Both the position numbers and the translations under genes were made by a program. Positions 6,712 to 20,000 of a DNA stretch of 20,000 nt are shown one piece after another; position 1 is the first letter of the stretch; each line of letters starts with the position of its first letter. Where the stretch lies: positions 108,250 through 128,249 of the IMG/VR virus record IMGVR_UViG_3300032167_007852. One strand, written 5' to 3'. A model generated the notes under the pieces. That model was given only the letters and a program-made list of their open reading frames with translations, was not told where the DNA came from and made no database searches. The DNA comes from an uncultured virus (IMG/VR IMGVR_UViG_3300032167_007852) (Duplodnaviria; Heunggongvirae; Uroviricota; Caudoviricetes).

Positions 6712-6721
6712 TTTGAGCCAG

Positions 6722-6756: not shown

Positions 6757-6973
6757 AATTATTTAAAATATCTAATATATTTATAGGTAATATCATTTCA
6801 TGACCATGTTCATCTCTAACTTCCAAAACTGTAGTTTCTCCATCAATTTTAGCAATCATTTTACAATCACCATCAAAACCACTGTCCTTTAATAATCCTA
6901 TAACTGCTAGTTTAGAACCATCATCCAATATTTCCCATAATAAATTATTATATAATTTTATTGGTTCTTCCAT
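6755..6973 (-). CDS. Hypothetical protein, 72 aa
   Basis: RBS GAAGGTG; tightly packed in the minus-strand operon. Confidence 0.75.
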   Translation of the reverse strand: MEEPIKLYNNLLWEILDDGSKLAVIGLLKDSGFDGDCKMIAKIDGETTVLEVRDEHGHEMILPINILDILNN

Positions 6974-6986
6974 ATAATCACCTTCT

Positions 6987-7211
6987 TCATCTTGTAAATT
7001 GTCTTATTGAATTGTGTGTATTTATAACAAGACAAAGAACATTATCTTCATCTAATACCAACACAACATCTTTTAATTCATGTTTATGTTCATCCATATA
7101 ATATTCAAGCCAATCATGTTGTTCTTGAGTTAATTTCTTACATATAGCTAGATTCTTAACCAATCTATTAAATTCTCCTATTTTAATTGGGCATGGTATT
7201 CCTTTTTTCAT
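6987..7211 (-). CDS. Hypothetical protein, 74 aa
   Basis: RBS AGGAGG; operon context. Confidence 0.8.
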   Translation of the reverse strand: MKKGIPCPIKIGEFNRLVKNLAICKKLTQEQHDWLEYYMDEHKHELKDVVLVLDEDNVLCLVINTHNSIRQFTR

Positions 7212-7223
7212 ATAAATTTCCTC

Positions 7224-8297
7224 CTATTCATTTAACAATTTGTGTTGTACTATACTCATTAATTCTTCAACTTCAGTTAATTCATTTGTATCCATTTCAA
7301 AATAACTGTATATAGGTACATTCATCTTAAATACATGATTAAAACAACCTAAACAACATAACATTTGAATATGTTCAGTTCCTTCTTCTGTTTTAAGATT
7401 ATAAACTAACATGTACCAATTATAAATATATTGATCTATTTTATTTGCTAAATCACCTTCTATTTCTGCATAACTTCTAGGTAATACAACTCTAAATTGT
7501 TCTTGTTCTATGAAATCATACATATTCTCTATTTTTATACCTTGTTTAGGTACATCATTAACTATATCTCTGTATGCTACTAAACTACAAGAACCTATTG
7601 TTGATAACTTAACCTCATTAGCATAATTATTAACACAATATTCAATATATTCTTCATTTGATAAAATTCTTATATTTTCACCTACAGAATCTAATAAGAA
7701 TTGTCTATTTTCATCATCAAGTTTCATTCTTATAAATAAATCATCAGCAACTATAACATCATCTAACGACATAGCTATAGTTACAAGTTTTTCCATTAAT
7801 TCATCATAATTACTAAATATAACTAAAATATCCATCAATTCATCATATTTACCACATGTTAAAAAGAAATAAAATAAATCTTTAATAGAAGCAGAAACTC
7901 TAATATTTACTAACTTACTATTAGGTTCTAAATATTCTATTTCTTTTTTAGACATATTAAGTTTAATTAATTCTTGTTGTATTTCAACATACTCAGTTAT
8001 TAATCTTTCATACTCTTTCTCAAATTTTTCATTTGGAAATTCCATTCTAACAAAACTGATATCATTAGGAACTAATCCAACACTTATATTTTTCATTGAT
8101 AAAAGAGTTGTATAAGCCAATGTATCTACATCTTCCAATATGAAAGAAATATTAAAACTATCTAAATCATCTAATACATTTCTTATTCTTTTATTGTTAA
8201 TAAAACTTTTTTCTTCTTGTACAAATCCTAACAATGCTTCTGCAACATCATTTAAACCTGTTTCAAAAAAATCACTATTTTCAATCGTTAATATCAT
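7224..8297 (-). CDS. Acidic protein with remote, degenerate ThyX (flavin-dependent thymidylate synthase)-like fold
   Basis: SFNISFILEDVDTLAYTTL and KKEIEYLEPNSKLVNIRVSASIKDLFYFF resemble ThyX segments, but the RHRx7S motif is absent. RBS AAGGAG. The CDS is solid; the fold call is tentative. Confidence 0.5.
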   Translation of the reverse strand: MILTIENSDFFETGLNDVAEALLGFVQEEKSFINNKRIRNVLDDLDSFNISFILEDVDTLAYTTLLSMKNISVGLVPNDISFVRMEFPNEKFEKEYERLITEYVEIQQELIKLNMSKKEIEYLEPNSKLVNIRVSASIKDLFYFFLTCGKYDELMDILVIFSNYDELMEKLVTIAMSLDDVIVADDLFIRMKLDDENRQFLLDSVGENIRILSNEEYIEYCVNNYANEVKLSTIGSCSLVAYRDIVNDVPKQGIKIENMYDFIEQEQFRVVLPRSYAEIEGDLANKIDQYIYNWYMLVYNLKTEEGTEHIQMLCCLGCFNHVFKMNVPIYSYFEMDTNELTEVEELMSIVQHKLLNE

Positions 8298-8309
8298 CTT
8301 ATCAGCTCC

Positions 8310-8597
8310 TTACATTAAATCTAAATTTACGTCTATAAATTTATTGACTATTTCAACATACTGAACTTTAAATTCTCTTATGTTTTCTAATCCTTTATAT
8401 TCATATTCTTCTATTGTAAAAACATCTTTGTATAAATCGTAAGGTATCCATTGATCGGTTTTTACTAAAAAATCAATCCATTGAATAAGGTGTTTCTTCT
8501 CAAAAAATTCATCTACTGTTAAATCAAATACATGTTTTGAACCATTTAAACAGATTAAAGTTATTTGATATCCCTTATATTCATGATTTATTTCCAT
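8310..8597 (-). CDS. Hypothetical protein, 95 aa
   Basis: RBS AGGGGTG; operon context. Confidence 0.8.
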   Translation of the reverse strand: MEINHEYKGYQITLICLNGSKHVFDLTVDEFFEKKHLIQWIDFLVKTDQWIPYDLYKDVFTIEEYEYKGLENIREFKVQYVEIVNKFIDVNLDLM

Positions 8598-8608
8598 TGT
8601 CTCACCCC

Positions 8609-8764
8609 TTACATGTTATATACTTTTACTGTTTGTTCTTTTCCACATTCACTACACATGATTGTTATCTCAAACCATCCGTCATCAGTTTCTTGAGAAT
8701 AATGTGTTACATCATGTACTGTTTCTTTTCCACATTCTTTACAAAAAATAATAGTTACATCCAT
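8609..8764 (-). CDS. Zinc-ribbon mini-protein, 51 aa (not in ORF track)
   Basis: Manual translation MDVTIIFCKECGKETVHDVTHYSQETDDGWFEITIMCSECGKEQTVKVYNM*, with two CxxC motifs. RBS GGGGTGA. Confidence 0.85.
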   Translation of the reverse strand: MDVTIIFCKECGKETVHDVTHYSQETDDGWFEITIMCSECGKEQTVKVYNM

Positions 8765-8797
8765 TTTATTCACCCCACATTTTTTATTAATTTATAA

Positions 8798-8837
8798 AGA
8801 TGTTGGACTATAAATAATTATCTATAATCCAACATCT
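8798..8837 (-). terminator. Stem-loop, probable terminator after 8844..9416
   Basis: 40-nt near-palindrome AGATGTTGGA...TCCAACATCT. Its two mismatches become G-U pairs on the minus strand. Confidence 0.7.
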
Positions 8838-8843
8838 CTTGTA

Positions 8844-9416
8844 TTAAATTAAATCATAATATGATATGATATCACCTATCATCTCAGAACCTGATTTACC
8901 AGCTAAAACAGACATTAATCCTATCGCTCTTGTATTACCTCTTATTTGAAATGGTTTATTTGCAAATCCAAATGTAAATTTTATCTTTTGCCATAAACTT
9001 TCTTTCTTATAAACTAAATCAGATTCTATAGAATGTTTTAATATTTCCGTAGCATTAATTGTCTTACCTTCATGTTCGTATATATAATGTAATAGAAAAC
9101 AGAAAACCATTGCTCTATTTAATAAACTATCTCCGCCTAAAGTTATATATTTATCAGCTAATGTTGATAATATAAACATCATAGCACCTGAATCATCTGG
9201 TAATCCACTTGTATCTTTTATTATTTCATCTACAGTTGTTAGATTATAATCTGCTATTATACCTAATAACCTTTTAAATGTTTTATTTATTATAATTTCG
9301 CCTTCTTTAACTTTCCAAAAATCACAACCATTGAAGGTTGTAATATATTCATTTAATTCATCACCTATTTCATTTACTATTCTATCCATTATTCTTTGTT
9401 CTCTTAACATATACAA
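8844..9416 (-). CDS. Hypothetical protein, ~190 aa
   Basis: RBS AGGAGG; start is TTG 9416 or ATG 9410. Confidence 0.8.
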   Translation of the reverse strand: MYMLREQRIMDRIVNEIGDELNEYITTFNGCDFWKVKEGEIIINKTFKRLLGIIADYNLTTVDEIIKDTSGLPDDSGAMMFILSTLADKYITLGGDSLLNRAMVFCFLLHYIYEHEGKTINATEILKHSIESDLVYKKESLWQKIKFTFGFANKPFQIRGNTRAIGLMSVLAGKSGSEMIGDIISYYDLI

Positions 9417-9424
9417 TACCTCCT

Positions 9425-10072
9425 TTAATTGTTAAAATATTGTAACACGCTATCAAAATCAATATTATCGTAATATTCTTTTAATAATGTTTGTACTTGT
9501 TCTACAGGTGCATCTTCACCTATTGATATACGTTTATTAAGATAATCATTTTTAGCATTTGCTAAATTACAACCTTCTATAGTTGATGTCATAACATTAT
9601 TATCTGGAAGATATATTCCTCCTGAACTTATTTCATAATTATCTGCTATTGAAGATGTTTCTATTGTATCTGTATCAAATTGTTGTATTATTCCATTTGT
9701 AGCCATATCATTATAAACTAATGATATGTTATTATCATTTAATATTTTTGCTAATTGTGATATCACATCACCTGTTACGTCTCCACTTATATTTTCCCTA
9801 TAAGCCATTTCATTTATAAATCTGTTTAAATTCATTATGTCTATAGCCTGGTCAATATTAGTTTTATCTATAACTGGACCATTGTTCATATTATAATGAT
9901 ATACCATATTCTTTAAATCATTAGGATCATACTTTTGTTGACTTAAGTTGTATTTATTTGCTAAATGTTTTATTGTAACTGTACCTAAATATTTTAAGAT
10001 ATCTTGTGTTGATTTTTTACCTAATAATGTTTTAGCTCCATTTAATAACATTCCTACACAATTATTAATCAT
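9425..10072 (-). CDS. Hypothetical protein, 215 aa, first gene after an early-type promoter
   Basis: RBS AGGAGG; long ORF. Confidence 0.85.
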   Translation of the reverse strand: MINNCVGMLLNGAKTLLGKKSTQDILKYLGTVTIKHLANKYNLSQQKYDPNDLKNMVYHYNMNNGPVIDKTNIDQAIDIMNLNRFINEMAYRENISGDVTGDVISQLAKILNDNNISLVYNDMATNGIIQQFDTDTIETSSIADNYEISSGGIYLPDNNVMTSTIEGCNLANAKNDYLNKRISIGEDAPVEQVQTLLKEYYDNIDFDSVLQYFNN

Positions 10073-10104
10073 AAATAATTACCTCCTATAATTTTAAATT
10101 AAAT

Positions 10105-10143
10105 AATTACATATTATATCTATCATAGATATAATATGTAATT
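10105..10143. repeat. Perfect 19-bp inverted repeat with 1-nt centre, overlapping a promoter
   Basis: AATTACATATTATATCTAT-C-ATAGATATAATATGTAATT. Confidence 0.9.
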
Positions 10144-10164
10144 GAAATATTACTCTGTTACACT
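10122..10164 (-). promoter_or_regulatory. Putative early promoter, copy 1
   Basis: Minus strand AGTGTAA-cagagtaat-ATTTC-aatta-CATATTATA-tct-ATGAT, overlapping the tmk stop codon. Confidence 0.7.
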
Positions 10165-10845
10165 ATCTGGAATTTCTAATGCTTCCCAAGCTTTTTCTGT
10201 TATTTCTTCTCTTGTAAGCATTTCATAACTTCCATCTTCATTCTGCTTACAGCAATCTATCATAACATAACCTTCTATATCACATAATCTTTGTAAATTA
10301 TTATATGCTTTCGTAAGATTTTCTATTGTTTCATTCTCATCCGTTTCTCTACCACGGTTTAAAATGTTTTGATATGATACTTCAGGCTTAACACTCAATA
10401 CTAGGGTGATATCTGGTTCAGGTAAACCTAATAGATCAAATTCTATATATTTCATTTTTGTTATATATACTTCTAATTCATCTTCTGACATGTCATTGCA
10501 TCTGTGTATAAAGTTACTAGAAAGATATCTGTCGAATATCAATAATTTATTTTCATTATATTCATCTAATTTAGATTTTCCATTTTCTCTTATTCGTCCT
10601 AATGAAACCATTCTATCTATAGCATACAACATTCCTTCTCTCACTTCTTTATATCCATCATCATTAAATCTTAAACCTTCATATAAGAATTTATCAACTA
10701 GCTCTCCAGAGAATTCTTCTTGATGTCTTGGAAAACTTATTATCTCGGCTTCTATATTTAATGCTTCAAATTTCTTTTTAAGATTCTCTGCTAATGTTCT
10801 TTTTCCACTTCCATCAATTCCTTCAATAGCTAAAGAAATTCCCAT
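10150..10845 (-). CDS. tmk: Thymidylate (dTMP) kinase
   Basis: P-loop IEGIDGSGKRT, SFPR, LYAIDR, FDRYLSSN and PEPDITLVL motifs. Confidence 0.92.
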   Translation of the reverse strand: MGISLAIEGIDGSGKRTLAENLKKKFEALNIEAEIISFPRHQEEFSGELVDKFLYEGLRFNDDGYKEVREGMLYAIDRMVSLGRIRENGKSKLDEYNENKLLIFDRYLSSNFIHRCNDMSEDELEVYITKMKYIEFDLLGLPEPDITLVLSVKPEVSYQNILNRGRETDENETIENLTKAYNNLQRLCDIEGYVMIDCCKQNEDGSYEMLTREEITEKAWEALEIPDSVTE

Positions 10846-10849
10846 ATAA

Positions 10850-11074
10850 TTACTCTCCCTTCACTAATTCTATTCTAAAATTAACTAATTTACAATCAAC
10901 TATAAATAATGCATAATCTTGTGTAATCTTCATTATATAGTTATCAGTTTCATTAGTTTTCTCAAATACTTCAACTACACATTCTTTAAACTCTTTCACT
11001 GCTGTAGCAAAATCGTTATAATGCATCGTAGCCTTTAATTCATCAACTTCCATTTTCATTGTATACATATTCAT
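10850..11074 (-). CDS. Hypothetical protein, ~74 aa
   Basis: RBS GGAGG; the ATG at 11074 overlaps the upstream stop (TAATG). Confidence 0.75.
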   Translation of the reverse strand: MNMYTMKMEVDELKATMHYNDFATAVKEFKECVVEVFEKTNETDNYIMKITQDYALFIVDCKLVNFRIELVKGE

Positions 11075-11217
11075 TACCTCCATAAATTATTAAAAATAAT
11101 AAGGATTATTCCAAAAGTTAATCCTATTAACATTATAGGGAAAGATAGCAACACGTTATGTGTCGCTATCACTGCTCCTATAATAATATTAATTAAACAT
11201 ACTAACCAATACTTCAT
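11074..11217 (-). CDS. Small two-TM membrane protein, 47 aa (not in ORF track)
   Basis: Manual translation MKYWLVCLINIIIGAVIATHNVLLSFPIMLIGLTFGIILIIFNNLWR*. RBS AGGAGG. Confidence 0.75.
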   Translation of the reverse strand: MKYWLVCLINIIIGAVIATHNVLLSFPIMLIGLTFGIILIIFNNLWR

Positions 11218-11226
11218 TTTACCTCC

Positions 11227-11982
11227 TTATTTTTTGACATTTATAACTTTTGTACTATCTACAAATTCTATTGTATATTTTAAGTTATTTAAATTTATTG
11301 TATCAACTAATTCTTTTAATGCTTTGTTGGCTTTCAATTGAACTTCTGTATCATCATATTTTTGTGCTTCTATTTTAGAATTTCTCATTAATTGTCTTAT
11401 AGCACCTTCTTTTAATTCTTCATCATCATTAAAGCACTCTAACCAATCTATTGCTTTAACTTGCCAATTTTTATATCTTTCTATTTCTTTTATGTCACCT
11501 ACTAATTCTACAGAATCAACTCCAACTGCATCTTTAGGAACTTTTAATATAACTTCTTCTTTATCGAAGTTATAATCTAATTTCATTCTTGTAACATCTA
11601 CAGAATATTTTATTTTGAAATTACCTTGTACTACAACATAATTTTTACCACTCTCACCATATGTTTCTGTCATTCTCATATTTTCTTCACCAAACACTAA
11701 AGCACTTACATCATATATTCCAGATTTAAGTTGCTCAACATGTTCTAAGAATAAATCTGTTTTTCCTTTTTCGTTTTTAACTTCTACTATTTTTGCTGGT
11801 CTGTTATTTATTGTAGGAGCTTGTTTCATTTTGAATACTATTATACAACCTCCCATTATAGTTATTACTGCTAAGATTATTGCTCCAGCTCTTCTTAATT
11901 TATCTTTACGTGTTTCCACAAATTTGCTTGATTTTTCTTTAACAACTTCAATATAAAATTTAACTCTTTCACTTAATTTCAT
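11227..11982 (-). CDS. Membrane-anchored DUF4230-like protein
   Basis: Single N-terminal TM (AGAIILAVITIMGGCIIVF). GNFKIKYSVDVTRM...EVILKVP and the C-terminal ANKALKELV resemble DUF4230. RBS GGAGG favours the ATG at 11982. Confidence 0.6.
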   Translation of the reverse strand: MKLSERVKFYIEVVKEKSSKFVETRKDKLRRAGAIILAVITIMGGCIIVFKMKQAPTINNRPAKIVEVKNEKGKTDLFLEHVEQLKSGIYDVSALVFGEENMRMTETYGESGKNYVVVQGNFKIKYSVDVTRMKLDYNFDKEEVILKVPKDAVGVDSVELVGDIKEIERYKNWQVKAIDWLECFNDDEELKEGAIRQLMRNSKIEAQKYDDTEVQLKANKALKELVDTINLNNLKYTIEFVDSTKVINVKK

Positions 11983-12011
11983 AATAAAACCCTCCATTAT
12001 TTTTTAATATT

Positions 12012-13046
12012 TTATTTAAAGCTTAATGTTATAACTTCTGGTTCAGCTATAGATCTTGTATTATCTAATTTAACTTGAACGTTATCTATTGTTATTTTTA
12101 TATGTTCTGTACTTTTAGCTGTTATAACTTTTGTATTCTCAATGTCTTTAGCTATTTCATCTATGTTATCAACAGTTGAACTTATATTCTCTAATGTTTC
12201 ATTTAATGACTCAACCATTTCATTTACATTCATGACTTCTTCAGCTTTATCTATTACTGCTTGTTTTGTAGGATTCATACTTTGTAATTGATTGTATATA
12301 GATTCAGCTATTTTATCTGAAACATAATTTACATAATCATCACTACAAATCTTAACTATTTCTGCTTTATTAAAATATCCAAATTCACCTAGGATGCTTA
12401 TTTTATTACTATTTTTAAATTGATTTAATTCTCCTATATATCCATCATTAGCTCTATTCGATCTTTGAGGAACATAGTTATTATTCTTTATAGAATTAGA
12501 GAATTTATTTGCTACTTCTGCTGATTTTGTATCTCCTTCATTATACATGAAGAAATATCCTGTACTGTCATCTTTGAAAGAATTATGATGAACTGATAAA
12601 TATATTTTTGGATCACATTTCATTGCTCTTCTACCTGCTGCATTTAAATCTCCAGATTTATCAGTTGCATATTGTAGATTTACATCTACTCCATATTTGC
12701 TATCTAATTTTTTAGCTATAGCTTTTGCAAGTTTTAAATTGATATCATATTCTGATATAAACCATTCGTTGTTTTCAACCCTTAATGGTATGTCACTAGG
12801 TATTTCTTTTATAGAGATTCCATGTTGACTTAAATTTATATCATTACCCCATGTATATCGTTTACCTGGTTTAACTGTATCTTTGTTACCCCATTCACCT
12901 GCTCTGATTACTACTTCTGTTGGTCTTATTGCGTTTTCACTATAATCTGCATATGCTGTATCTTTAGGTAAACTTGTTAATATCATTGCTGCGAATAATA
13001 TTGCTGTTAAAAGATTTTTTCCATATTTTATTATAGCTTGTAACAT
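12012..13046 (-). CDS. N-acetylmuramoyl-L-alanine amidase (Amidase_3) with N-terminal signal/TM and C-terminal coiled coil
   Basis: SEYDINLKLAKAIAKKL, YLSVHHNS, TGYFFMY and SILGEFGYFN motifs. Signal-like LLTAILFAAMILTSLPKDTAYA. RBS GAGGGGTG before the ATG at 13046. Confidence 0.85.
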   Translation of the reverse strand: MLQAIIKYGKNLLTAILFAAMILTSLPKDTAYADYSENAIRPTEVVIRAGEWGNKDTVKPGKRYTWGNDINLSQHGISIKEIPSDIPLRVENNEWFISEYDINLKLAKAIAKKLDSKYGVDVNLQYATDKSGDLNAAGRRAMKCDPKIYLSVHHNSFKDDSTGYFFMYNEGDTKSAEVANKFSNSIKNNNYVPQRSNRANDGYIGELNQFKNSNKISILGEFGYFNKAEIVKICSDDYVNYVSDKIAESIYNQLQSMNPTKQAVIDKAEEVMNVNEMVESLNETLENISSTVDNIDEIAKDIENTKVITAKSTEHIKITIDNVQVKLDNTRSIAEPEVITLSFK

Positions 13047-13118
13047 AATAACACCCCTCAAATTTTTTAAATTTTTATAGCTATCTTTTAGCAAATTTAT
13101 CTTGAAGTTGTTTTTAAG

Positions 13119-13607
13119 TTATCTTACTAATACTGTTGGTAATCCTTGGTTTTCTCTTTCATATTGATATGAAGAATGTAATGCATCTACATCTAAATTA
13201 ACAAATACGTTATTCATATTATACTTAGCATGAATATTAAATACTTCATCCATAAAGTTTCTCATATAAGTTAATTCTTCTATGACTGTTCTATTAAATA
13301 CATTTGTTAAGGTTAATAGATTATCTAATTCCTCTTGAATATATTTAATACCTTTTGTTTCTTCTTGACATCCTTCTCTAACCATTTTTATTTCCCCTAA
13401 TGTTAAGAATGTATTAGTTCCTTGAATATTATATACTTCATAATCTTCATAGAAACTACTATTCCTATCGGATACTGAATAAGGTTTATATGTTATATCA
13501 TCAGTTGTGATACTATATAATTGATTAATATAACTATCACACATCGACATTGTTCCCCAACATATAACCTGATTGAATTTGTCTAAACATATAACATAAT
13601 TATTCAT
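13119..13607 (-). CDS. Hypothetical protein, 162 aa
   Basis: RBS GGGAGG before the ATG at 13607; follows an early-type promoter. Confidence 0.8.
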   Translation of the reverse strand: MNNYVICLDKFNQVICWGTMSMCDSYINQLYSITTDDITYKPYSVSDRNSSFYEDYEVYNIQGTNTFLTLGEIKMVREGCQEETKGIKYIQEELDNLLTLTNVFNRTVIEELTYMRNFMDEVFNIHAKYNMNNVFVNLDVDALHSSYQYERENQGLPTVLVR

Positions 13608-13635
13608 ATTAAATCCTCCCTTAATAATATTTTGT

Positions 13636-13677
13636 ATCACTTTTATAATATATAACTGAAATTTTATAATTTACAGT
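13636..13677 (-). promoter_or_regulatory. Putative early promoter, copy 2
   Basis: Minus strand ACTGTAA-attataaa-ATTTC-agtta-TATATTATA-aaa-GTGAT. Confidence 0.75.
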
Positions 13678-13678
13678 T

Positions 13679-13931
13679 AAAAAAATTATTTCCTCTAAAG
13701 GAAATAATTATGTTTATTGCTTGCGTTAGCGAGAAAATTTGTTCATGTAAATGAACGTATCTTCCTAACCATATTTCTATTTGTAACAACTTCTTTCACT
13801 CACCTTTTTATAAGGTTCGTTTCGTATCTTAATTTCGCTTTCGCTTCATTAAGAAGTTGTTGGTATGTTGATAAATAATTATACGGTTTCGCTGAAATGT
13901 AATTTGCTACAACAATATATACTATTTTGTT
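13679..13931. other. ORF-free multi-hairpin structured element (candidate ssDNA origin/priming signal or ncRNA)
   Basis: Hairpins at 13684-13709, 13720-13733 and 13741-13756. A long-range stem 13785-13795/13851-13861 encloses two tandem-GA hairpins, one with GCGAAAGC (minus strand, 13837-13844). Confidence 0.65.
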
Positions 13932-13942
13932 AAGGAACATAT

Positions 13943-13972
13943 AAAATGTGTATAGCCCTTAGGCTATACACA
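13943..13972 (-). terminator. Intrinsic terminator
   Basis: TGTGTATAGCC-ctta-GGCTATACACA, 11-bp stem with T4 on the minus strand, just after the stop of 13978..14436. Confidence 0.85.
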
Positions 13973-13977
13973 GAATA

Positions 13978-14436
13978 TTATTTTCTAACTTTTCCATCAC
14001 CTATTAATAAATTAGCTTTATTAACTGCTTTACCAACAGCTTTAGATTTAGTATTTTTAGATTTTTTCATAGCTTGTTTTGCTAATTGTTTAGCTTGAGC
14101 AGAATATCTTTTTTCTAATTTTTTCTCTATGAATCTTTCTAATTTCCATAAAGTTAAAAGTTTTTTGAAATCTCTATCATTTTTTTCTTTAGCTACTTGG
14201 AATATAGCCATTTTGTAAGCTTTATTTTTCTTAGCTTCTTTATCTAAACGAACTATACTTCTTTCTACTAATATATCTTCATTTATAGCTTTTCCTAAAT
14301 CGTAAGTATTTTCAGTTAAAGATTCTATTTCTTCACTAGAGAATGTATCTAATATAGCACATTCTACTATTAAAGCATTAATTTCAGTTTCATTACTAAA
14401 TTCATTTATTATTAATCCGTTATCATCGAATATCAT
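13978..14436 (-). CDS. Probable virion head protein (acidic N-terminus, very basic C-terminus)
   Basis: Charge switch around ILVE|RSIVRLDK suggests a cleaved propeptide. Lies in an operon under a late-type promoter. The function is inference. Confidence 0.55.
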   Translation of the reverse strand: MIFDDNGLIINEFSNETEINALIVECAILDTFSSEEIESLTENTYDLGKAINEDILVERSIVRLDKEAKKNKAYKMAIFQVAKEKNDRDFKKLLTLWKLERFIEKKLEKRYSAQAKQLAKQAMKKSKNTKSKAVGKAVNKANLLIGDGKVRK

Positions 14437-14459
14437 AAAATTTACCTACCTTTCGTATT

Positions 14460-15449
14460 TTAATTCATTGTTACACCATATGCACTACAAAAATCTTTTT
14501 TAGCTTGTTCGTATACTGTAAAGAAAGCATTGTAAGCTTTAAATACATTTGAAGTCATTGCACTTATGAATGAACTTACCATAGTTATTAATTGTTCTAC
14601 TTGTGAAATATTACTTTGGTCTATTTCTGCTCCTCCATTACGTGCACCTTCAAGTTGACTTTTTAATTGTTCTAATTGTTTAATGGTATGGCTTTGGGCA
14701 TCGTTAAGATATTTAGAAAGACCTTTACCACCACTTCCTCCATCTCCACCTTTATCCATATCTGCAGATAGATAAGATTCTACTACATTCATTGGTATAT
14801 CTTTTACCTTTACAGGTTGTGCTTCTTTAGGTTCTCCAACCTCTAAAGCTATTCTATCAGCCATAGATGCTTCTGGTACAGCTTTGTATGATCCTTTTCC
14901 TTTAAAGCAAGCACGTTTAACAGCTTTTAAAAGCTGTTTGTTTTCATTTTTATATTTATCTGCAAAAAATGATGATAGGTGGTTTCCTACAACACCATTA
15001 ACGGCATTTATGAATGTATCAGTTACTCCTTCTTTAACTTTGAATTCTGCGAATTTTATCATGTTAACAGTACGTAAAGATCCAGCGAATATATCTCTCA
15101 TTGTTACATTCTTTTTACCTTTATGGATATTTGTATCATAAACGTCACTTGATTTACCTTGAGCACCGCCTTCTCCGATGGCATCATTTATATCATCTAA
15201 AGGAACACTGGATTTTCTACCAAGTAAGAAATCAATCATTTTTTTAACAAGTTCTCTTATCTTAGCAATTACGGTTTTGATAAATTCAACCACTTTATTA
15301 ATCGCATTTTTCACATTTTCACCTAGAGCTTCTTGCATGTAATATTCGTTATTAGCTAATTGACTTATGGTATAGTCTAAATCATATTTAGCCATATTAA
15401 CATCCACCATAGCTTTTTGCTCAGCGATTATATCGTATATATTTCTCAT
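14460..15449 (-). CDS. Probable internal head protein of jumbo-phage type
   Basis: YYMQE|ALGENVKNAINKVVEFIKTVIAKIRELVKKMIDFL: Glu followed by an amphipathic helix, as in processed phiKZ-like head proteins. RBS AAGGAG; late-type promoter upstream. Confidence 0.55.
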   Translation of the reverse strand: MRNIYDIIAEQKAMVDVNMAKYDLDYTISQLANNEYYMQEALGENVKNAINKVVEFIKTVIAKIRELVKKMIDFLLGRKSSVPLDDINDAIGEGGAQGKSSDVYDTNIHKGKKNVTMRDIFAGSLRTVNMIKFAEFKVKEGVTDTFINAVNGVVGNHLSSFFADKYKNENKQLLKAVKRACFKGKGSYKAVPEASMADRIALEVGEPKEAQPVKVKDIPMNVVESYLSADMDKGGDGGSGGKGLSKYLNDAQSHTIKQLEQLKSQLEGARNGGAEIDQSNISQVEQLITMVSSFISAMTSNVFKAYNAFFTVYEQAKKDFCSAYGVTMN

Positions 15450-15482
15450 CCATTACTCTCCTTTCTTTAAGTAATTACAGTA

Positions 15483-15496
15483 ATTATAAGATTGTT
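15483..15496 (-). promoter_or_regulatory. Putative late promoter (AACAATCTTATAAT)
   Basis: Third copy of AACAATC-N2-ATAA, upstream of the head-protein pair. Confidence 0.65.
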
Positions 15497-15500
15497 CTTT

Positions 15501-15543
15501 AGTGTAAAAAGGTAATATTTCGATGCTATATTATATAAGTGAA
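15501..15543 (+). promoter_or_regulatory. Putative early promoter, copy 3
   Basis: AGTGTAA-aaaggtaat-ATTTC-gatgc-TATATTATA-taa-GTGAA. Confidence 0.75.
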
Positions 15544-15655
15544 TAATCAATCAAATAACAATGATGTAACCAACTTAGAATAAGGATTGATTAAATTCTA
15601 TATGATCCTTAACAAAAAATTAATAAAAAATAAAAAAATTAAGGGGGTACACCAT

Positions 15656-16327
15656 ATGAAAGAATTAAGTAACAGTTATTTAGTAGAAAGATTAAATGTT
15701 GAAAATAGTTTAAGAAATGCTGGCGTAATAGAAGTTCAATCTGTAATGCCTGGAGAATCATCTGAATACAAAAACAGAGTGCTTAATCTATTTGGTGGAT
15801 TCGACAAAGCAACAATAAGCGAAATGATGAAACAATGCTTAAAATGGGAAGAGGAAGATGCTGAGATATTATACAAACATTCTCAACAAATCAGACAATT
15901 ACAAGATCCAAGACAATTATTAAAACCAATAATATTAAACATAAACTCTCCTGGAGGACATGTAGATGAATTAATGGCTTTAGTAGACATGTTAGAATCT
16001 ATGCCTGCTCCAGTTATAACAAGAGCTTATGGAGAAATAGCATCTTGTGGTTTTGTATTATTCTGCATAGGGGATGAAAGATATGTTGGACCTAATGTAT
16101 CTTTAATGTACCATGAGATAGCATACGGAATAATGGGAAAAGATAGTGAGATAAGAAATTACAGTGAATATACAAAAAGAGTACAAAAACGTATAGATAG
16201 ATTAATAAAAGCTAAAACAGGAATAACATTAAAGAAATTAGATGAATGGAAAAAATCTAATCAAGATAAATGGCTGGATGCTGAAGAAGCAGTTGAGCTA
16301 GGAATAGCTACAGCATTCTTATATTAA
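15656..16327 (+). CDS. clpP: ClpP-family (S14) serine protease subunit
   Basis: PIILNINSPGG, IASCG (catalytic Ser), LMYHE (His), DKWLDAEEAVELGIA (Asp region). RBS AGGGGG before the ATG at 15656. Confidence 0.9.
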   Translation: MKELSNSYLVERLNVENSLRNAGVIEVQSVMPGESSEYKNRVLNLFGGFDKATISEMMKQCLKWEEEDAEILYKHSQQIRQLQDPRQLLKPIILNINSPGGHVDELMALVDMLESMPAPVITRAYGEIASCGFVLFCIGDERYVGPNVSLMYHEIAYGIMGKDSEIRNYSEYTKRVQKRIDRLIKAKTGITLKKLDEWKKSNQDKWLDAEEAVELGIATAFLY

Positions 16328-16341
16328 AAAGGAGAGATAAT

Positions 16342-16509
16342 ATGAATACGTGGTCAAAATATGAAAGATGTGCAAAAGCAATGTCTGATTATAAAGCAAA
16401 ATTTGGTAAAGGGATACCTGTACAATTATTATTCTATGATATGGAGTATATAATTGAAGTTACAGAAAAAGCAATAAAAGATAATGTTGAATTATCATAT
16501 GAAGAATAA
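16342..16509 (+). CDS. Hypothetical protein, 55 aa (not in ORF track)
   Basis: RBS AAGGAG; MNTWSKYERCAKAMSDYKAKFGKGIPVQLLFYDMEYIIEVTEKAIKDNVELSYEE*. Confidence 0.8.
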   Translation: MNTWSKYERCAKAMSDYKAKFGKGIPVQLLFYDMEYIIEVTEKAIKDNVELSYEE

Positions 16510-16531
16510 GGGATTTCCCTTATTCTTTTTT
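16502..16531 (+). terminator. Intrinsic terminator
   Basis: AAGAATAAGGGA-tt-TCCCTTATTCTT followed by a T-run. Confidence 0.85.
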
Positions 16532-16561
16532 ATATGATCCTAAACATTTAAATATATCAAA

Positions 16562-16603
16562 AGTGTAATTTATAGAATTTCGATACCATATTATAACTGT
16601 GAA
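16562..16603 (+). promoter_or_regulatory. Putative early promoter, copy 4
   Basis: AGTGTAA-tttataga-ATTTC-gatac-CATATTATA-act-GTGAA. Confidence 0.8.
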
Positions 16604-16639
16604 ATACCATAATAATATATTTAATTAGGAGGTAATCAT

Positions 16640-16924
16640 ATGAGAATAGTTGTAATGGATAGAAAAAGAAATGAAGTAATAAGAGTCAATATTGATTTAA
16701 ATGACAAAGTGTTCATAGTGGCACCTGAAATTGTTAATCATAAATTCGATTATTTAAGACAAAGATTAATGGATATACGTAAAGTTTATATGATCCAGTA
16801 TTTAGAAGATAAAGAAAACTATGTGTATTATGAAGGACAGATATACAAAGAAATGAAAGAACTATTATTAGAAGAAATGCATAATATATACACAACAGAG
16901 GGAATTATGTATTACACAAGATAA
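16640..16924 (+). CDS. Hypothetical protein, 94 aa
   Basis: RBS AGGAGG. Confidence 0.8.
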   Translation: MRIVVMDRKRNEVIRVNIDLNDKVFIVAPEIVNHKFDYLRQRLMDIRKVYMIQYLEDKENYVYYEGQIYKEMKELLLEEMHNIYTTEGIMYYTR

Positions 16925-16964
16925 TAATATTACAGAGGGATAAACGAAAGGGAGTAAATAACTT

Positions 16965-17186
16965 ATGAAACAAGAACAATCAGGAACTAAAGATGAAATA
17001 GCATTTTCAATAATAACAGAAAAATTCAATAATGAATATACAGAACTATATGATGCATTATATTATTATATGGAAACCCATATAAAAGGATATACAATGG
17101 ATAGAGAATTATTTAGAGACGAAGTAGAAAATTATTTAGACATAAGATCTCATTCAGATATTGTAAATTATATATTAAAATTATGA
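16965..17186 (+). CDS. Hypothetical protein, 73 aa
   Basis: RBS AGGGAG. Confidence 0.75.
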   Translation: MKQEQSGTKDEIAFSIITEKFNNEYTELYDALYYYMETHIKGYTMDRELFRDEVENYLDIRSHSDIVNYILKL

Positions 17187-17198
17187 AGGAGGTGAAAG

Positions 17199-17885
17199 GT
17201 GATACTATCATTAGATAGTATCACCACTTTTATGTTCTTAAATTATAGTACAGGGAAAAACTATTTAGTAGGGAAAGTTAAAGCTAATGGAACTAATATA
17301 ATGTTATATGGACATGTTAGTGAAAGATATCCTGAAAGATTAGGACGTGTACAAGAAGTTACAAAAGCAAAATGCTTAAAGTATAATAACTTATTAAACA
17401 AAGCTATCAAGATAACTGAAGATCATTATAAAGAATGTATAAACCCAACAGATAAAAAAGTTAGACACGTAATACGTGATGAAGTTCATTTTGAATGTGA
17501 AGATGGAAAACATTTTGTAATAGATTTAACAATGTTAGTTACAGGAACTGTAGTTGGATTTGATCCTAATCATCCTAAAGTTGTAGAGCCTCAATATAAA
17601 GATTTAGTTAATAAAAGAATAATAAAAGTAAATGACAAGATATTAACTTTCGAGACTCTAGCAACTACAATAAGATTTGAAAATGAAAAATTAGAAAACT
17701 TTAGCTATCAACCAACTGTAGCATATTTTGGATTACCTCAAAGAGTATATAAAGCAACTAAAGCAGATATGTTATATATGACAGAACACATGGTAAAAGA
17801 TAAAGATACAAAGATAAGTAAAAATGTAATGAAAGTTTTAAACGCATATAATAATGATTTAAAAAGACAAGCTGTATTAGCTTAG
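17199..17885 (+). CDS. Hypothetical protein, 228 aa (GTG start)
   Basis: RBS AGGAGGTG; long ORF. Confidence 0.8.
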   Translation: MILSLDSITTFMFLNYSTGKNYLVGKVKANGTNIMLYGHVSERYPERLGRVQEVTKAKCLKYNNLLNKAIKITEDHYKECINPTDKKVRHVIRDEVHFECEDGKHFVIDLTMLVTGTVVGFDPNHPKVVEPQYKDLVNKRIIKVNDKILTFETLATTIRFENEKLENFSYQPTVAYFGLPQRVYKATKADMLYMTEHMVKDKDTKISKNVMKVLNAYNNDLKRQAVLA

Positions 17886-17893
17886 TTTATATG

Positions 17894-17928
17894 ATCCTAT
17901 GAATTATGATAAGTGTAATTCATAGGAT
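17894..17928 (+). terminator. 13-bp stem-loop overlapping a TATATGATCC motif and the upstream part of a promoter
   Basis: ATCCTATGAATTA-tgataagtg-TAATTCATAGGAT, just after the stop of 17199..17885. The U-tail is short. Confidence 0.55.
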
Positions 17929-17953
17929 TTCAGTACCATATTATAACAGTGAA
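17912..17953 (+). promoter_or_regulatory. Putative early promoter, copy 5
   Basis: AGTGTAA-ttcatagg-ATTTC-agtac-CATATTATA-aca-GTGAA. Confidence 0.8.
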
Positions 17954-17988
17954 ATATAATAAAAAATAATTTAAAAGGAGTGTTGTTT

Positions 17989-18126
17989 ATGTTAGGATTA
18001 TGGTTATTAGTATTTGCTTTAATATTAGCTGCAATGAAAGTTAATGCAGAAGTAATATTAGCTTTAGTAATATTAGCAATAATAATAAAAGATATATATG
18101 TATTATTCCATTATAAAAAGAAATAA
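17989..18126 (+). CDS. Small two-TM membrane protein, 45 aa (not in ORF track)
   Basis: RBS AAGGAG; MLGLWLLVFALILAAMKVNAEVILALVILAIIIKDIYVLFHYKKK*. Confidence 0.8.
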   Translation: MLGLWLLVFALILAAMKVNAEVILALVILAIIIKDIYVLFHYKKK

Positions 18127-18129
18127 GTA

Positions 18130-18233
18130 ATAAAAGAGTTCTAAAGAGGCATCTCTCTAAAAGCCTCTTTCCAATAGGATTTATATGATCCTAAATAAAA
18201 TAAATAAGAGGGAGAATGATATTTATGATGAAT
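18130..18233 (+). repeat. ~103-bp direct repeat, copy A (hairpin + TATATGATCC + RBS + start codons)
   Basis: Identical to 18445-18546 except a 2-nt CT indel and one G/A substitution. Confidence 0.95.
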
Positions 18234-18443
18234 ATAACTGCTAAATTAACAAGTAAAAGTGCTGAGAAAATTGCTGTAACAACAATAAAAAGTGTAAGTA
18301 AAGTTGCAACTAAAGTAGTAGAAGGTGGAGTGTTAACAAATCCAGCAACATTAACTGCAGCAGTAGCAGTAACAGGAATATATGCAACTTATAAGTATTT
18401 AGACAATAAAGATAAAAGAAGATATGAGAATAAAGCATATTAA
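18225..18443 (+). CDS. Small basic protein with a hydrophobic segment, ~72 aa
   Basis: RBS GAGGGAG; hydrophobic stretch LTAAVAVTGIYATY. Enclosed by the direct repeats. Confidence 0.75.
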   Translation: MMNITAKLTSKSAEKIAVTTIKSVSKVATKVVEGGVLTNPATLTAAVAVTGIYATYKYLDNKDKRRYENKAY

Positions 18444-18444
18444 T

Positions 18445-18546
18445 ATAAAAGAGTTCTAAAGAGGCATCTCTAAAAGCCTCTTTCCAATAGGATTTATATG
18501 ATCCTAAATAAAATAAATAAAAGGGAGAATGATATTTATGATGAAT
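18445..18546 (+). repeat. ~103-bp direct repeat, copy B
   Basis: See copy A (18130-18233). Confidence 0.95.
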
Positions 18547-18879
18547 TATGATGATATGAGAAATATAATGAGAGCTGTAGAATTAGAAAACTATTTTATA
18601 AAAGTTGATGCAGAAGTAGACAAAGCATTAGTAACAAACGACAACTTTATGAATATAACAGATGCAATATTAGAAATAGAAAACAGATGTAGAAATATAG
18701 AAGATGCAAAAGCAATGAGAAGAAGATGTGACAAATTAACTAATTTAATAAAAGTAATGAATAATATAGAAACAGAAGCAATAAAAATAAAAGATCATGA
18801 ACTAATGTGGAAATGTGAAGCAAGAAAAGGAAAAATGATAATGCAAATGCAAGTAATGCAAGACAAATATGATTTCTAA
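18538..18879 (+). CDS. Helical hypothetical protein, paralogue of 18936..19217
   Basis: RBS AAGGGAG; shares the LT.L...IE.EA.K..D.E...CE...K...KY.F C-terminus. Confidence 0.8.
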   Translation: MMNYDDMRNIMRAVELENYFIKVDAEVDKALVTNDNFMNITDAILEIENRCRNIEDAKAMRRRCDKLTNLIKVMNNIETEAIKIKDHELMWKCEARKGKMIMQMQVMQDKYDF

Positions 18880-18935
18880 AAATATATATCATAATTCAAA
18901 ATAAAAAAATATAATATATAAGGAGAGATGGATAT

Positions 18936-19217
18936 ATGATGAATTTAAATTATGAAATAAAATGTGTAGAAAGAGAAGTTATGTTAGCAATGTTTACAGA
19001 TGAAATGTATTTAAAACATACAGAAGCAACAGATGAAAAAGTAATTAAAATAATGAACGAAAGAATGGTATTATTAACAAAATTAGATACAAAAGTTGCA
19101 GATATAGAAATGGAAGCATTCAAAGTAAATGACAAAGAAGCTGTAAATAGATGTGAAAGAATAAGATATAAAATAGCAGATGAATTAAGAGCAATAAGAG
19201 TTAAGTATAATTTCTAA
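18936..19217 (+). CDS. Helical hypothetical protein, paralogue of 18538..18879
   Basis: RBS AAGGAG; shared C-terminal pattern. Confidence 0.8.
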   Translation: MMNLNYEIKCVEREVMLAMFTDEMYLKHTEATDEKVIKIMNERMVLLTKLDTKVADIEMEAFKVNDKEAVNRCERIRYKIADELRAIRVKYNF

Positions 19218-19316
19218 TCTTTATATGATCCAAGCATAAGATAAGAAGTATCCTTTACAAAAGATAAATGTTATGTGGGAGTAAATAAAATTTATATTAT
19301 AAAGGAGAAAAATATT

Positions 19317-19517
19317 ATGTATGCTTTATTAAACGTTAAAAATAATAAATTCTTTAGAGGAGAAAATAAATACGGAAACTGTTATGAAGTAGATTTATTT
19401 ATAGAAGCTCATACATTCAATGACATAAAAGATGCTTATTATAGAAATAACTTATTGAAAGAAGAATATAGAATAGTTACAATAGATGAAGCAAAAGAAA
19501 TGAATAAATTATATTAA
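19317..19517 (+). CDS. Hypothetical protein, 66 aa
   Basis: RBS AAGGAG before the ATG at 19317. Confidence 0.75.
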   Translation: MYALLNVKNNKFFRGENKYGNCYEVDLFIEAHTFNDIKDAYYRNNLLKEEYRIVTIDEAKEMNKLY

Positions 19518-19530
19518 GGAGGAATAAATT

Positions 19531-19659
19531 ATGGAAATGATATTAACTATAGCCCTAATAGCATTAGGGATTTATGTAATTAAAACATCTATAGGTGCAA
19601 TATTCAAAATAGGAATATGTTTAGCAATAATAGCAATGATATTAAATATGTTAGGGTAG
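19531..19659 (+). CDS. Small two-TM membrane protein, 42 aa (not in ORF track)
   Basis: RBS AGGAGG; MEMILTIALIALGIYVIKTSIGAIFKIGICLAIIAMILNMLG*. Confidence 0.8.
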   Translation: MEMILTIALIALGIYVIKTSIGAIFKIGICLAIIAMILNMLG

Positions 19660-19668
19660 GTGATTTTA

Positions 19669-19779
19669 ATGAAAGGTAAAGTTATTTATCTTGATAAATA
19701 TAGGGAAGAAAAAAATAAAGATATAATTTATAGATTTAAAAAATTCATTAAGAAGATATGGGGAGTGATAAATATATGA
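19669..19779 (+). CDS. Small basic peptide, 36 aa (not in ORF track)
   Basis: RBS AGGTGA; MKGKVIYLDKYREEKNKDIIYRFKKFIKKIWGVINI*; ATGA overlap with the next gene. Confidence 0.6.
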   Translation: MKGKVIYLDKYREEKNKDIIYRFKKFIKKIWGVINI

Positions 19780-20000
19780 AAATATTTATATTACAAAATG
19801 CTAATTACGAAGAAGGATTTAGCTTATATTCAAAACAAACTATATTAGCAGAATCTGTTGATCAAGCAATAGAGATAGCTAATAATGAAGAAGAAACTAA
19901 TTGGATATTATGGGAAGAAATAGATATGACAAAACCAAGAATCATATCACAAGACGATGTTGAATATCTAAGTTATGGATATGAAGACTGGGACGATTAG
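19776..20000 (+). CDS. Acidic hypothetical protein, 74 aa
   Basis: RBS GGGAGTG before the ATG at 19776; stop TAG at the window end. Confidence 0.75.
   Translation: MKIFILQNANYEEGFSLYSKQTILAESVDQAIEIANNEEETNWILWEEIDMTKPRIISQDDVEYLSYGYEDWDD

Follow-up and report, generated by a model that had tools for sequence, protein, structure and literature searches.

Transcription of the jumbo phage AR9 has been modeled with only two promoter classes, early promoters of the form AAATATATATTAT-N6-G and late promoters of the form AACA-N6-TA/G, and these also occur in tandem (Lavysh et al., 2017, PMC5312081). By the count of that paper, AR9 has 159 transcription start sites (TSSs). In phiKZ, the non-virion RNA polymerase (RNAP) uses late promoters of the form 5'-TATG-3', with the G at +1 (PMC12809450, PMC7598289). 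T4-type phages carry promoter-early stem-loops (PeSLs) in which the promoter is sigma-70-like and both functions were shown experimentally (Arbiol et al., 2010, PMC2839356).

The window analyzed here is a stretch of 20,000 nucleotides. It closes a 128-kb contig from a jumbo phage of the AR9/PBS1 type, which is uncultivated and encodes multisubunit RNAPs. The contig gave PHROG hits to the RNAP beta subunit, a hit was also obtained under the annotated "non-viral RNA polymerase beta subunit" of MarsHill, and its gene order was syntenic with AR9. Two of its motif classes equaled the experimentally defined AR9 early (ATATTAT-N6-G) and late (AACA-N6-TA) consensus and lay upstream of the expected gene classes. 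On the + strand of the window, early-type promoter-like motifs were found at 15502..15541 (GTGTAAAA...ATTTCGAT...ATATTAT-N6-G, predicted start G 15541, matching the consensus of the AR9 virion RNAP), 16563..16601 (predicted start G 16601) and 17913..17951 (predicted start G 17951).

A first-pass annotation of the window had reported a third, strand-polar motif, the 10-mer TATATGATCC, with seven copies on the + strand, none in the first 15.5 kb, and well under one copy expected by chance. The recount agreed on every point. Exact copies start at 15599, 16531, 16787, 17888, 18182, 18495, and 19222, with none on the - strand; both strands upstream of 15599 contained no exact copy, and copies with one mismatch occurred in the window at 344(-), 6573(+), 13934(-), 14885(+), and 17047(+). 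In 200 dinucleotide-preserving shuffles of the window the mean was 0.13 copies (maximum 2), and none reached seven. The common extended form that had been noted for six copies is TTTATATGATCC; the remaining copy, at 15597, reads TCTATATGATCC. A count by strand over the whole 128,249-bp contig, which the annotation had proposed, gave eight exact copies on the + strand and zero on the other. Extending the 10-mer gives a 12-mer, TTTNTATGW(T/A/C)CC, of which it is the core and whose wider family is spread over the contig, with 17 curated intergenic copies.

The seven copies, all on the + strand, are placed as follows. Copy 1 (15597..15608) lies 63 nt past the predicted early-type start 15541 and 52 nt ahead of ATG 15656, which has a Shine-Dalgarno sequence; the longest ORF begins upstream of it, at TTG 15587, and the copy would count as intergenic only on the assumption that translation begins at 15656. 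Copy 2 (16529..16540) directly follows a terminator-like hairpin of 12 pairs (16501..16528, +), whose T-run merges into the motif, and the promoter-like motif 16563-16601 comes next. Copy 3 (16785..16796) is in the sense orientation within a 94-aa ORF (16640-16924), with the motif ATG in the ORF frame. The description of six copies as intergenic and one as coding therefore holds for the copy at 16787 and depends, for that at 15599, on the start codon. Copy 4 (17886..17897) immediately follows the TAG stop of the ORF 17199-17885, upstream of the promoter-like motif 17913-17951, and copy 7 (19220..19231) lies 2 nt beyond the TAA stop of the ORF 18936-19217, without a hairpin. Copies 5 (18180..18191) and 6 (18493..18504) belong to a repeated module consisting of a hairpin, the motif hairpin, an A-rich leader, a Shine-Dalgarno sequence, and the first codons. 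In the first module (18130..18233, +) the motif is 3' of the hairpin 18143-18170 and ATG 18216 follows; in the second (18445-18546) it lies past the hairpin 18458-18483 and the start codon of the ORF 18529-18879 follows. A 2-nt indel in the loop and a single mismatch (18208 vs. 18521) distinguish the two modules.

The GGAT partners proposed for the ATCC of the motif were found again: TAAGGAT/ATCCTTA at copy 1 (15581-15611), TGGAT/ATCCA at copy 3 (16770/16793), a TAGGAT/ATCCTA hairpin with copy 5 at its apex (18175-18193), a complementary GGAT at copy 6 (18488-18506), and at copy 4 the ATCC opens the 13-bp stem of the hairpin 17894-17928. Over a curated set of 64 intergenic copies from eight genomes, in which TATG is present throughout by the definition of the pattern, 14 had an upstream complement of at least 5 nt that included CC, compared with 5.9% when flanks were shuffled. 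The complement is enriched, yet it is a minority feature of the motif.

The annotation had also asked whether relatives share the motif. The same 12-mer recurred, in matching contexts, in AR9, BpSp, Staphylococcus S6, Listeria LPJP1, Yersinia phiR1-37, and Fusobacterium JD-Fnp4, phages whose capsid proteins are 21-25% identical to that of the contig phage; the hosts of the motif-bearing phages are Bacillus, Staphylococcus, Listeria, Yersinia, and Fusobacterium, with the rumen as a further origin. In four phiKZ-like phages it was at background (none in SL2, EL, and RSL2; one in PDCC-1). No printed description of the 12-mer was found in the literature, and the motif appears to be undescribed.

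A Markov-3 scan of the eight genomes counted 62 intergenic copies against 1.5 expected, and among the copies curated as lying between tandem genes, 42 were co-oriented with both flanking genes and five were anti-oriented. Together with the window shuffles, these figures establish a real, strand-polar cis-signal that is not due to chance. Its information content is high. Eleven of the 12 positions are constrained, spanning -7 to +5 when the G is set as +1, whereas no conservation was seen from -37 to -8. When the fixed positions were relaxed one at a time in three related genomes, each added only 0-3 intergenic hits to 36 (+1, +0, +1, and +0 for -3, -2, -1, and +1, the TATG), and one-mismatch relatives, such as TACG in JD-Fnp4, were rare. 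The claim that the motif is distinct from both promoter motifs was upheld, since neither the ATATTAT-N6-G with its AT-rich upstream block nor an AACA upstream of TATG occurs in it. No conserved -35 was found upstream, and sigma-70-like promoters were not enriched in the region (45 vs. 52.1 in shuffles). The suggested association with early regions was upheld: an early-type promoter was present in 12 of 27 intergenic regions with the motif and 66 of 328 without it. Copies also occur elsewhere in the contig and in other phages. The observation of the first-pass annotation was thus confirmed, and its interpretation was partly supported.

Our first-ranked reading, which was absent from the options in that annotation, is tentative, and we give it a probability of about 35%: the motif would be a third promoter class of AR9/PBS1-type jumbo phages, with a phiKZ-like TATG start, combined with terminators in PeSL-like cassettes. 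The options listed there (an RNA site, an operator, a polar DNA signal, a crossover site) are candidates. What the sequences show is a real, polar, intergenic motif of high information content that is conserved across the clade; initiation, the reading enzyme, and the timing are inferred. A multisubunit RNAP of the phage, or an accessory factor, would read the motif on the coding strand, and RNA would start at or beside the G of TATG, as it does where the non-virion polymerase of phiKZ transcribes late genes. The motif could act by itself or next to an early (ATATTAT-N6-G) or late (AACA-N6-TA) promoter. Together with the stem-loop ahead of it, it would form terminator-promoter cassettes around small accessory genes, and the repeated cassettes may double as recombination joints.

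Besides its polarity and information content, several properties are consistent with a promoter. The distance between the motif G and the first downstream start codon that has a Shine-Dalgarno sequence has a median of 50 nt (29-58 nt in 20 of 33 copies), close to the medians of 39.5 and 40 nt for predicted early and late starts. Conservation in the same contexts across the clade, despite the low capsid identity, is what one would expect if conserved phage machinery reads the signal. Several copies in divergent regions without a co-directional upstream gene (e.g., phiR1-37 197194 and 227631, LPJP1 167201, BpSp 51905) also fit, as does the frequent tandem arrangement with early or late promoters, which mirrors that of AR9; a separate AACA-N6-TA lies 2-4 nt beyond the motif in nine of 64 copies. 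The AR9-type polymerases and signals of the contig phage, and the lack of enrichment of sigma-70-like promoters, point the same way. The resemblance to the phiKZ late promoters includes the invariant TATG core, the position of the motif across the putative start rather than at -10/-35, and the homologous split beta/beta' polymerase encoded by the contig phage. The differences are the 11 constrained positions as opposed to four, the association with early-type regions and not with late genes, and the background frequency in phiKZ-like phages. With AR9 the contig phage shares its clade and both promoter motifs, but the sequence of the 12-mer is unlike either.

Other results argue against a promoter. 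None of the 10 AR9 matches, three of them intergenic, coincided with a TSS in Tables S2 and S3 (PMC5312081 supplements). AR9 FPKM fell from 153 to 42 at 20 min and from 1157 to 621 at 40 min on passing the copy that separates g229 from g228, and g292, with a copy in its 5' UTR, was expressed purely early. The phiR1-37 RNA-seq paper describes no further conserved sequence ahead of its new start sites. Hairpins follow eight of the 64 copies by script, and five of these were read as terminators (S6 132446, LPJP1 14755, BpSp 169710, phiR1-37 163068, and contig 126135, which is window copy 4); a sixth copy with a terminator-like hairpin downstream is at a CDS end, LPJP1 216396. Several of these lie between convergent genes, where a promoter would yield only short RNA. 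Nor does the motif replace other promoters: an early or late motif accompanied it in 18 of 27 upstream regions and was present in 172 of 328 regions that lack it. A search for homologues of the sigma-like gp226 gave one in each of five genomes with a match and none in the contig or in its relative G001, and no extra specificity factor was seen in that search. Finally, intragenic copies were over-represented on both strands (Markov-3, eight genomes: sense 28 vs. 3.1 expected, antisense 25 vs. 5.3), an excess that none of the readings explains, although a DNA-level site could tolerate it.

Among the alternatives, an RNA-level element ranks first but is unlikely: a site in the transcript for a phage RNA-binding protein or endoribonuclease, punctuating polycistronic early RNAs or setting their stability. 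RNase III sites in T7 and RegB sites in T4 are precedents for such control. The sense orientation between genes agrees with it, as do the positions in 5' UTRs (nine of 64 copies, 29-63 nt past a predicted early start), between cistrons, and in 3' UTRs before terminators. A hairpin stands directly 5' of 29 of the 64 copies and would shield the upstream RNA after a cut, and in the hairpin-embedded copies varying flanks keep their complementarity. The AR9 pipeline, as far as it is described, was designed for primary 5' ends and could have filtered out processed ones. However, many copies, including all four in JD-Fnp4, directly follow strong terminators, where little RNA is expected, about 25-30 lie upstream of the next promoter and outside its transcript, and the divergent-region copies have no upstream transcript; a linear specificity of 12 nt is also unusual for an RNase. 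Less probable is a DNA site bound by a phage regulator, acting either as an operator or as a polar roadblock, which would modulate or shut off early transcription units. A non-palindromic 12-mer of high information, enriched beside early-type promoters and abutting their upstream edge (0-5 nt in seven of 10 rumen-phage cases read) or lying about 30 nt past their start, would suit such a site. Against it, the strict co-orientation in tandem contexts is not required of a simple operator, the position relative to promoters varies, 23 of 64 copies stand with no promoter nearby, and a candidate binding protein was not identified.

The FPKM drop across the g229/g228 copy (2- to 3.6-fold) and the lack of a TSS at AR9 copies could instead point to a sequence at which one phage polymerase, such as the late enzyme, would specifically terminate or pause, insulating early units from read-through. 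We consider this improbable. The motif does adjoin stop codons (within 9 nt and with no hairpin in 11 of 64 copies) or hairpins, has a T-rich 5' half and a pyrimidine(-1)-G(+1) junction, is found at some convergent gene ends, and is missing from the structural-gene blocks of the contig, apart from one operon end. In nine of 64 copies, though, the motif separates an early start from its gene, so it cannot be a general terminator; there are genes after stop-motif junctions that have no other promoter (e.g., S6 231857), sense intragenic copies are not depleted, and divergent-region copies have nothing to terminate. As for intrinsic terminators, the T-run of the upstream hairpin often fuses with the motif TTT, but 35 of the 64 copies have no adjacent upstream hairpin, the JD-Fnp4 copies follow a GC-rich hairpin with its own run of at least seven T, and the motif is missing at most terminators of the contig. 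Least probable of all is a motif that does nothing itself and is a conserved scar of mobile regulatory modules, or a passenger on them, maintained by cassette recombination. Its presence differs at orthologous junctions of close relatives, and their similarity in the early region is mostly confined to the regulatory modules, but 11 of 12 positions are constrained across hosts despite about 21-36% capsid or RNAP-beta identity to the contig phage, and its flanks are unconserved.

Cassette turnover was compared between this one window and four relatives (G001-G004). The junction of copy 4 is also found in G003 without the motif, as is the junction before the homologue of the gene downstream of copy 7; the hairpin 16501-16528 is kept in G003 and is followed by different sequence, again without the motif. 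Genes were gained, lost, or replaced at the cassettes. Against G001, G002, and G004, alignable stretches of the early region were mostly regulatory modules plus a few genes, and several shared genes aligned with G003. The earlier idea of a crossover site for small gene cassettes thus received partial support. For the third-promoter reading, the architecture of a stem-loop terminator beside a putative promoter, recurring where small genes come and go, is present. PeSL cassettes are likewise small repeated modules of stem-loop and signal on either side of small orphan genes, in an early region that is plastic; between relatives they account for most of what can still be aligned, and gene content varies at them; they differ in that the motif is not sigma-70-like and its promoter role is putative.

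Away from the cluster, a variant, TTTATATGTTCC, lies at 13934..13945(-) directly after a terminator-like hairpin (13972-13947) that closes a unit of two minus-strand genes, and is thus oriented with local transcription. The ends of the RNA-library contigs fall at repeats. A third copy of the repeated module is located at about 41820-41900 of the contig, and related copies occur in G002.

The 10-mer TATATGATCC occurred seven times in the window, always on the + strand (15599, 16531, 16787, 17888, 18182, 18495, and 19222). This is not a chance frequency: 200 dinucleotide-preserving shuffles gave a mean of 0.13 copies, and none of the 200 reached seven. Six copies are identical (TTTATATGATCC), as the first-pass annotation had described, and the seventh is TCTATATGATCC. 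One copy (16787) lies in a coding sequence, here the ORF at 16640-16924, and the GGAT/ATCC partners are present, both as that annotation had named them. Its placement of the other six copies between genes holds provided that the first gene starts at the ATG at 15656. This gene encodes a ClpP-like protease, and the ATG of the first motif copy is in frame with it (15602-15655). A start there would give the protein an 18-residue lysine-rich N-terminal extension, which is probably coincidental.

A mismatch-tolerant search revealed that the true unit is the 12-mer TTTNTATGW(T/A/C)CC. In the contig and two related phage genomes (G001 and G002), 36 copies were intergenic, and 6 sense and 7 antisense copies lay in coding sequence. 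When any one of the fixed positions was relaxed, these three sequences gained only 0-3 intergenic matches, and outside positions -7 to +5 nothing was conserved except a downstream A-rich run. The strand counts in five related IMG/VR records were 1:11, 15:2, 12:3, 11:2, and 10:2, while the control, the motif read backwards, gave 0-2 per strand. When eight genomes were compared with a Markov-3 expectation, we found 62 intergenic copies (1.5 expected), 28 coding-sense copies (3.1 expected, 9-fold), and 25 coding-antisense copies (5.3 expected, 4.7-fold). A variant, TTTGTATGATCC, was seen at 6571-6582 (+) and 14883-14894 (+) of the window, antisense within minus-strand genes.

The 12-mer, mostly as TTTCTATGATCC, was present across the phages of the clade: AR9 (8 copies), S6 (14), LPJP1 (11), phiR1-37 (18), and BpSp (15), with 0-2 for the controls, and Fusobacterium phage JD-Fnp4 (4). 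The phiKZ-like phages nearly lacked it (none in SL2, which is phiKZ-type, EL, or RSL2; one in PDCC-1). After removal of three ordinary Shine-Dalgarno gene starts (G002 98982, G001 37377, and phiR1-37 204611), 64 curated intergenic copies remained in eight genomes: 17 in this contig, 9 each in G002 and G001, 7 each in S6 and phiR1-37, 6 each in LPJP1 and BpSp, and 3 in AR9. The motif is a real, conserved punctuation signal of AR9-type jumbo phages. It is apparently new: we found no description of it in the literature, a string search with four 9-10-mers gave unrelated titles among the matches listed, and the available portions of the accounts of AR9 (Fig. S3 aside), phiR1-37, MarsHill, and UFV_DC4 and of a review of the RNA polymerases contained no such motif.

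The source is a single contig of 128,249 bp (27.9% GC), and the window is its final 20 kb. PHROG matches indicated a myovirus; they included a tail sheath, RNA polymerase beta-like subunits, topoisomerase II, several HNH endonucleases, and an NAD-dependent DNA ligase. The capsid protein was 21-25% identical to those of AR9/PBS1, BpSp, Staphylococcus S6-type, Listeria LPJP1, and Yersinia phiR1-37 phages; 29 contig proteins of at least 100 aa matched the AR9 genome, often in the same order, and one beta-like protein matched a MarsHill region annotated "non-viral RNA polymerase beta subunit." Since IMG/VR relatives at 95% and 83% capsid identity have records of 227.5 and 228.3 kb, the contig is probably a fragment of a jumbo phage of about 228 kb. 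Related sequence was present in bovine-gut RNA libraries.

The current account of the AR9-type transcription programme has two polymerases and two promoter motifs, and the 12-mer adds a third signal. Reading all upstream regions of the contig, we found that a long motif, GTGTAAAA...ATTTCRAT...ATATTAT-N6-G, precedes many small and DNA-metabolism genes, and that AACA-N6-TA precedes structural genes. These are, respectively, the early (AAATATATATTAT-N6-G+1) and late (AACA-N6-TA/G) consensus of AR9, based on dRNA-seq and primer extension (PMC5312081, consulted in part). The 12-mer matches neither, as the first-pass annotation had held. The early-type motif extends over about 40 nt (GTGTAAAA-N-ATTTCRAT-N-ATATTAT-N6-G) and stands at 15502-15541, 16563-16601, and 17913-17951 (+) and at 10124-10163 (-) in the window, with further sites contig-wide; its upstream portion is similar to the CCGTATTAAAA block that precedes some AR9 early promoters (Table S2). 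The late motif, at 4215-4227 and 6700-6712 (-) and before most minus-strand structural genes, lies 23-50 nt ahead of them and is identical to the AR9 consensus. From this likeness, the rumen phage and AR9 seem to have a late-promoter code in common, and the rumen phage may have dU-containing DNA.

Among the 64 intergenic copies, 29 had a hairpin within 14 nt upstream, and 11 had no hairpin and a stop codon within 9 nt upstream. A predicted early start lay 29-63 nt upstream of nine copies. Downstream, the early motif occurred within 90 nt in 16 cases and AACA-N6-T(A/G) within 45 nt in 15, nine of these at a spacing of exactly 2 or 4 nt; the motif stood alone before a leader in 23. A script detected downstream hairpins at eight copies, five of which were judged terminators, as was one at a CDS end in LPJP1 (216396). 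By crude longest-ORF gene calls, the flanking genes were both co-oriented in 42 cases, divergent in 10, convergent in 7, and both opposite in 5, and two "divergent" S6 copies really follow unannotated small ORFs. Measured from the G of TATG, the next start codon that has a Shine-Dalgarno sequence lay at a median of 50 nt, comparable to the 39.5 and 40 nt of the other two classes. In S6, as in the window, an early promoter is followed by a small membrane ORF, a hairpin, the motif, and the next gene, and all four JD-Fnp4 copies lie between a terminator and an early or late motif.

The reading that we rate highest, at a probability of about 0.35, is that the motif is a third promoter class. A fuller version, in which the class is clade-wide, has its start-site TATG between TTT and WTCC, and drives the early region's mobile cassettes of small genes, is a little more doubtful; if true, AR9-type polymerases would have a second, phiKZ-like promoter search without the AACA/gp226 contact. 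A promoter is favored by the motif's polarity and placement, its information content, the A-rich leader that comes after it, and its occurrence in tandem with other promoters, which is how AR9's promoters are arranged. A homologous enzyme, the non-virion polymerase of phiKZ, has as its start-site consensus the TATG that is invariant here, and the G is its +1 (PMC12809450 and PMC7598289, both consulted in part). Other results speak against a promoter. No start listed in Tables S2 and S3 of the AR9 map (PMC5312081) falls on any of the 10 matches in AR9; that map, made at 20 min, has 159 TSSs by the paper's count and starts for 134 of 293 genes. AR9 FPKM drops across the copy at g229/g228, and g292, the only one of 38 early 5' UTRs from Table S2 with the motif core, is expressed as a purely early gene. 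In the sections available, the phiR1-37 authors report that new starts shared no further conserved sequence. In addition, some copies have a terminator alone downstream, other promoters are not replaced by the motif (as a filler of promoter gaps it was not seen; odds ratio 1.8, p = 0.17), and a second sigma-like subunit was not found. In tblastn searches, AR9 gp226 had one homologue each in G002, S6, phiR1-37, LPJP1, and BpSp and none in this contig or G001. This homologue is a sigma-like subunit of the non-virion polymerase, and in S6 (130989-132446) and LPJP1 (216396-217818), a motif copy and a bidirectional terminator are convergent with the 3' end of its gene.

An RNA site, a polar protein roadblock, or a polymerase-specific terminator would each suit most copies and leave awkward ones, and copies in divergent regions, with nothing upstream to terminate or process, favor the promoter. 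Of these, the RNA element has perhaps one chance in five. The motif forms the apex or 3' arm of a hairpin in about one fifth of copies, and the flanks of motif hairpins vary yet stay complementary in 14 of 64 cases, against 5.9% with shuffled flanks; a search of window 13500-20000 for known RNA families gave none at E up to 1, 80 kb of the contig likewise gave none at gathering score, and none of the phiR1-37 non-coding RNAs listed in Table 1 up to misc_9 coincides with a copy. We consider a protein site rather less probable, a terminator specific to one polymerase improbable, and a motif with no function of its own the least credible. A general terminator is excluded because nine copies are preceded by an early start and followed by its gene, and because some genes have no other promoter. 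A host sigma-70 promoter showed no enrichment and no -35. A leaderless or in-frame internal start was rejected, as only 10 of the 28 sense copies in coding sequence have an in-frame ATG; the mini-ORFs that the intergenic ATGs open appear to span just a few to about 20 codons, with nothing conserved past CC. GATC is missing from the common TTCC variant, which speaks against a Dam site; in two copies inspected by eye, the reverse complement lacks AACA-N6-TA, which speaks against an opposite-strand late promoter; and a host Chi site is unlikely because phages of unrelated hosts have the same motif.

Assembled contigs from four bovine-gut metatranscriptome runs of one study were aligned to the window. 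They spanned the copies at 17893 and 19227 and started at 16565/16569, at 18522 (two runs), and near 15625-15630. Position 18522 directly follows 18521, the sole mismatch between the two module copies (18130-18233 and 18445-18546); 16565-16569 is where the repeated early-promoter module begins; and 15625-15630 is within a flagged low-complexity stretch. These starts are therefore most likely assembly breaks, and because contig ends fall on repeat boundaries, the RNA libraries cannot discriminate among the readings.

The two modules take in the first codons of their downstream genes, both of which start MIFMMN; the 5' end of the gene was therefore copied along with the regulatory cassette. Nucleotide similarity of the early region to the related records G001, G002, and G004 was mostly confined to regulatory modules, plus a few genes in G002; several shared genes also aligned with G003. 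After the ORF at 17199-17885, G003 keeps the early promoter and is missing the motif; the conserved hairpin at 16501-16528 is followed by different sequence, and the gene downstream of 19222 has no upstream motif there. The motif is thus dispensable at single sites and moves with cassettes, and the promoter-early stem-loops of T4-type phages likewise travel with cassettes (PMC2839356, consulted in part).

Rumen phages share the motif with phages of Bacillus, Staphylococcus, Listeria, Yersinia, and Fusobacterium but not with the phiKZ-like phages tested, so the current model leaves out some of how the clade expresses or shuffles its genes. As a promoter, the motif would link AR9-type with phiKZ-type promoter recognition; if it acts instead as an RNA site, roadblock, or terminator, non-canonical multisubunit polymerases would have a new form of punctuation specified by sequence. 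Under any reading, it marks joints where phages swap small accessory genes, and its role is directly testable in cultivable members of the clade.

G003 also lacks two features that lie between the ClpP-like gene and the capsid-side genes of the window, a 329-aa gene on the minus strand and the divergent promoter region; the window counterpart of G003 57363-57460 is 14460-15610, and RNA-library contig X2 has a joint skipping 13956-15448. Two further observations concern contig positions 87866-90563 (7866-10563 of contig part L005) and 17268-18243 (contig part L001). The DNA polymerase appears split, with a 492-aa ORF, then an HNH endonuclease ORF, then a 121-aa polymerase-similar ORF. Two long, GC-richer non-coding stretches with common sequence (…ggttcaacgactatc…gatatagtct.atctcatatgaaagtatgagc…) flank HNH genes; they had no Rfam match at gathering score and look like introns with homing endonucleases. 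Outside the window, at 1884-14429 (-) in L001, a 4181-aa ORF consists of many leucine-rich-repeat-like units (...DTS.V.NM..MF..C..L.SLDVSNWDTS...), and the first 1.9 kb or so of the contig carries the same repeat DNA.
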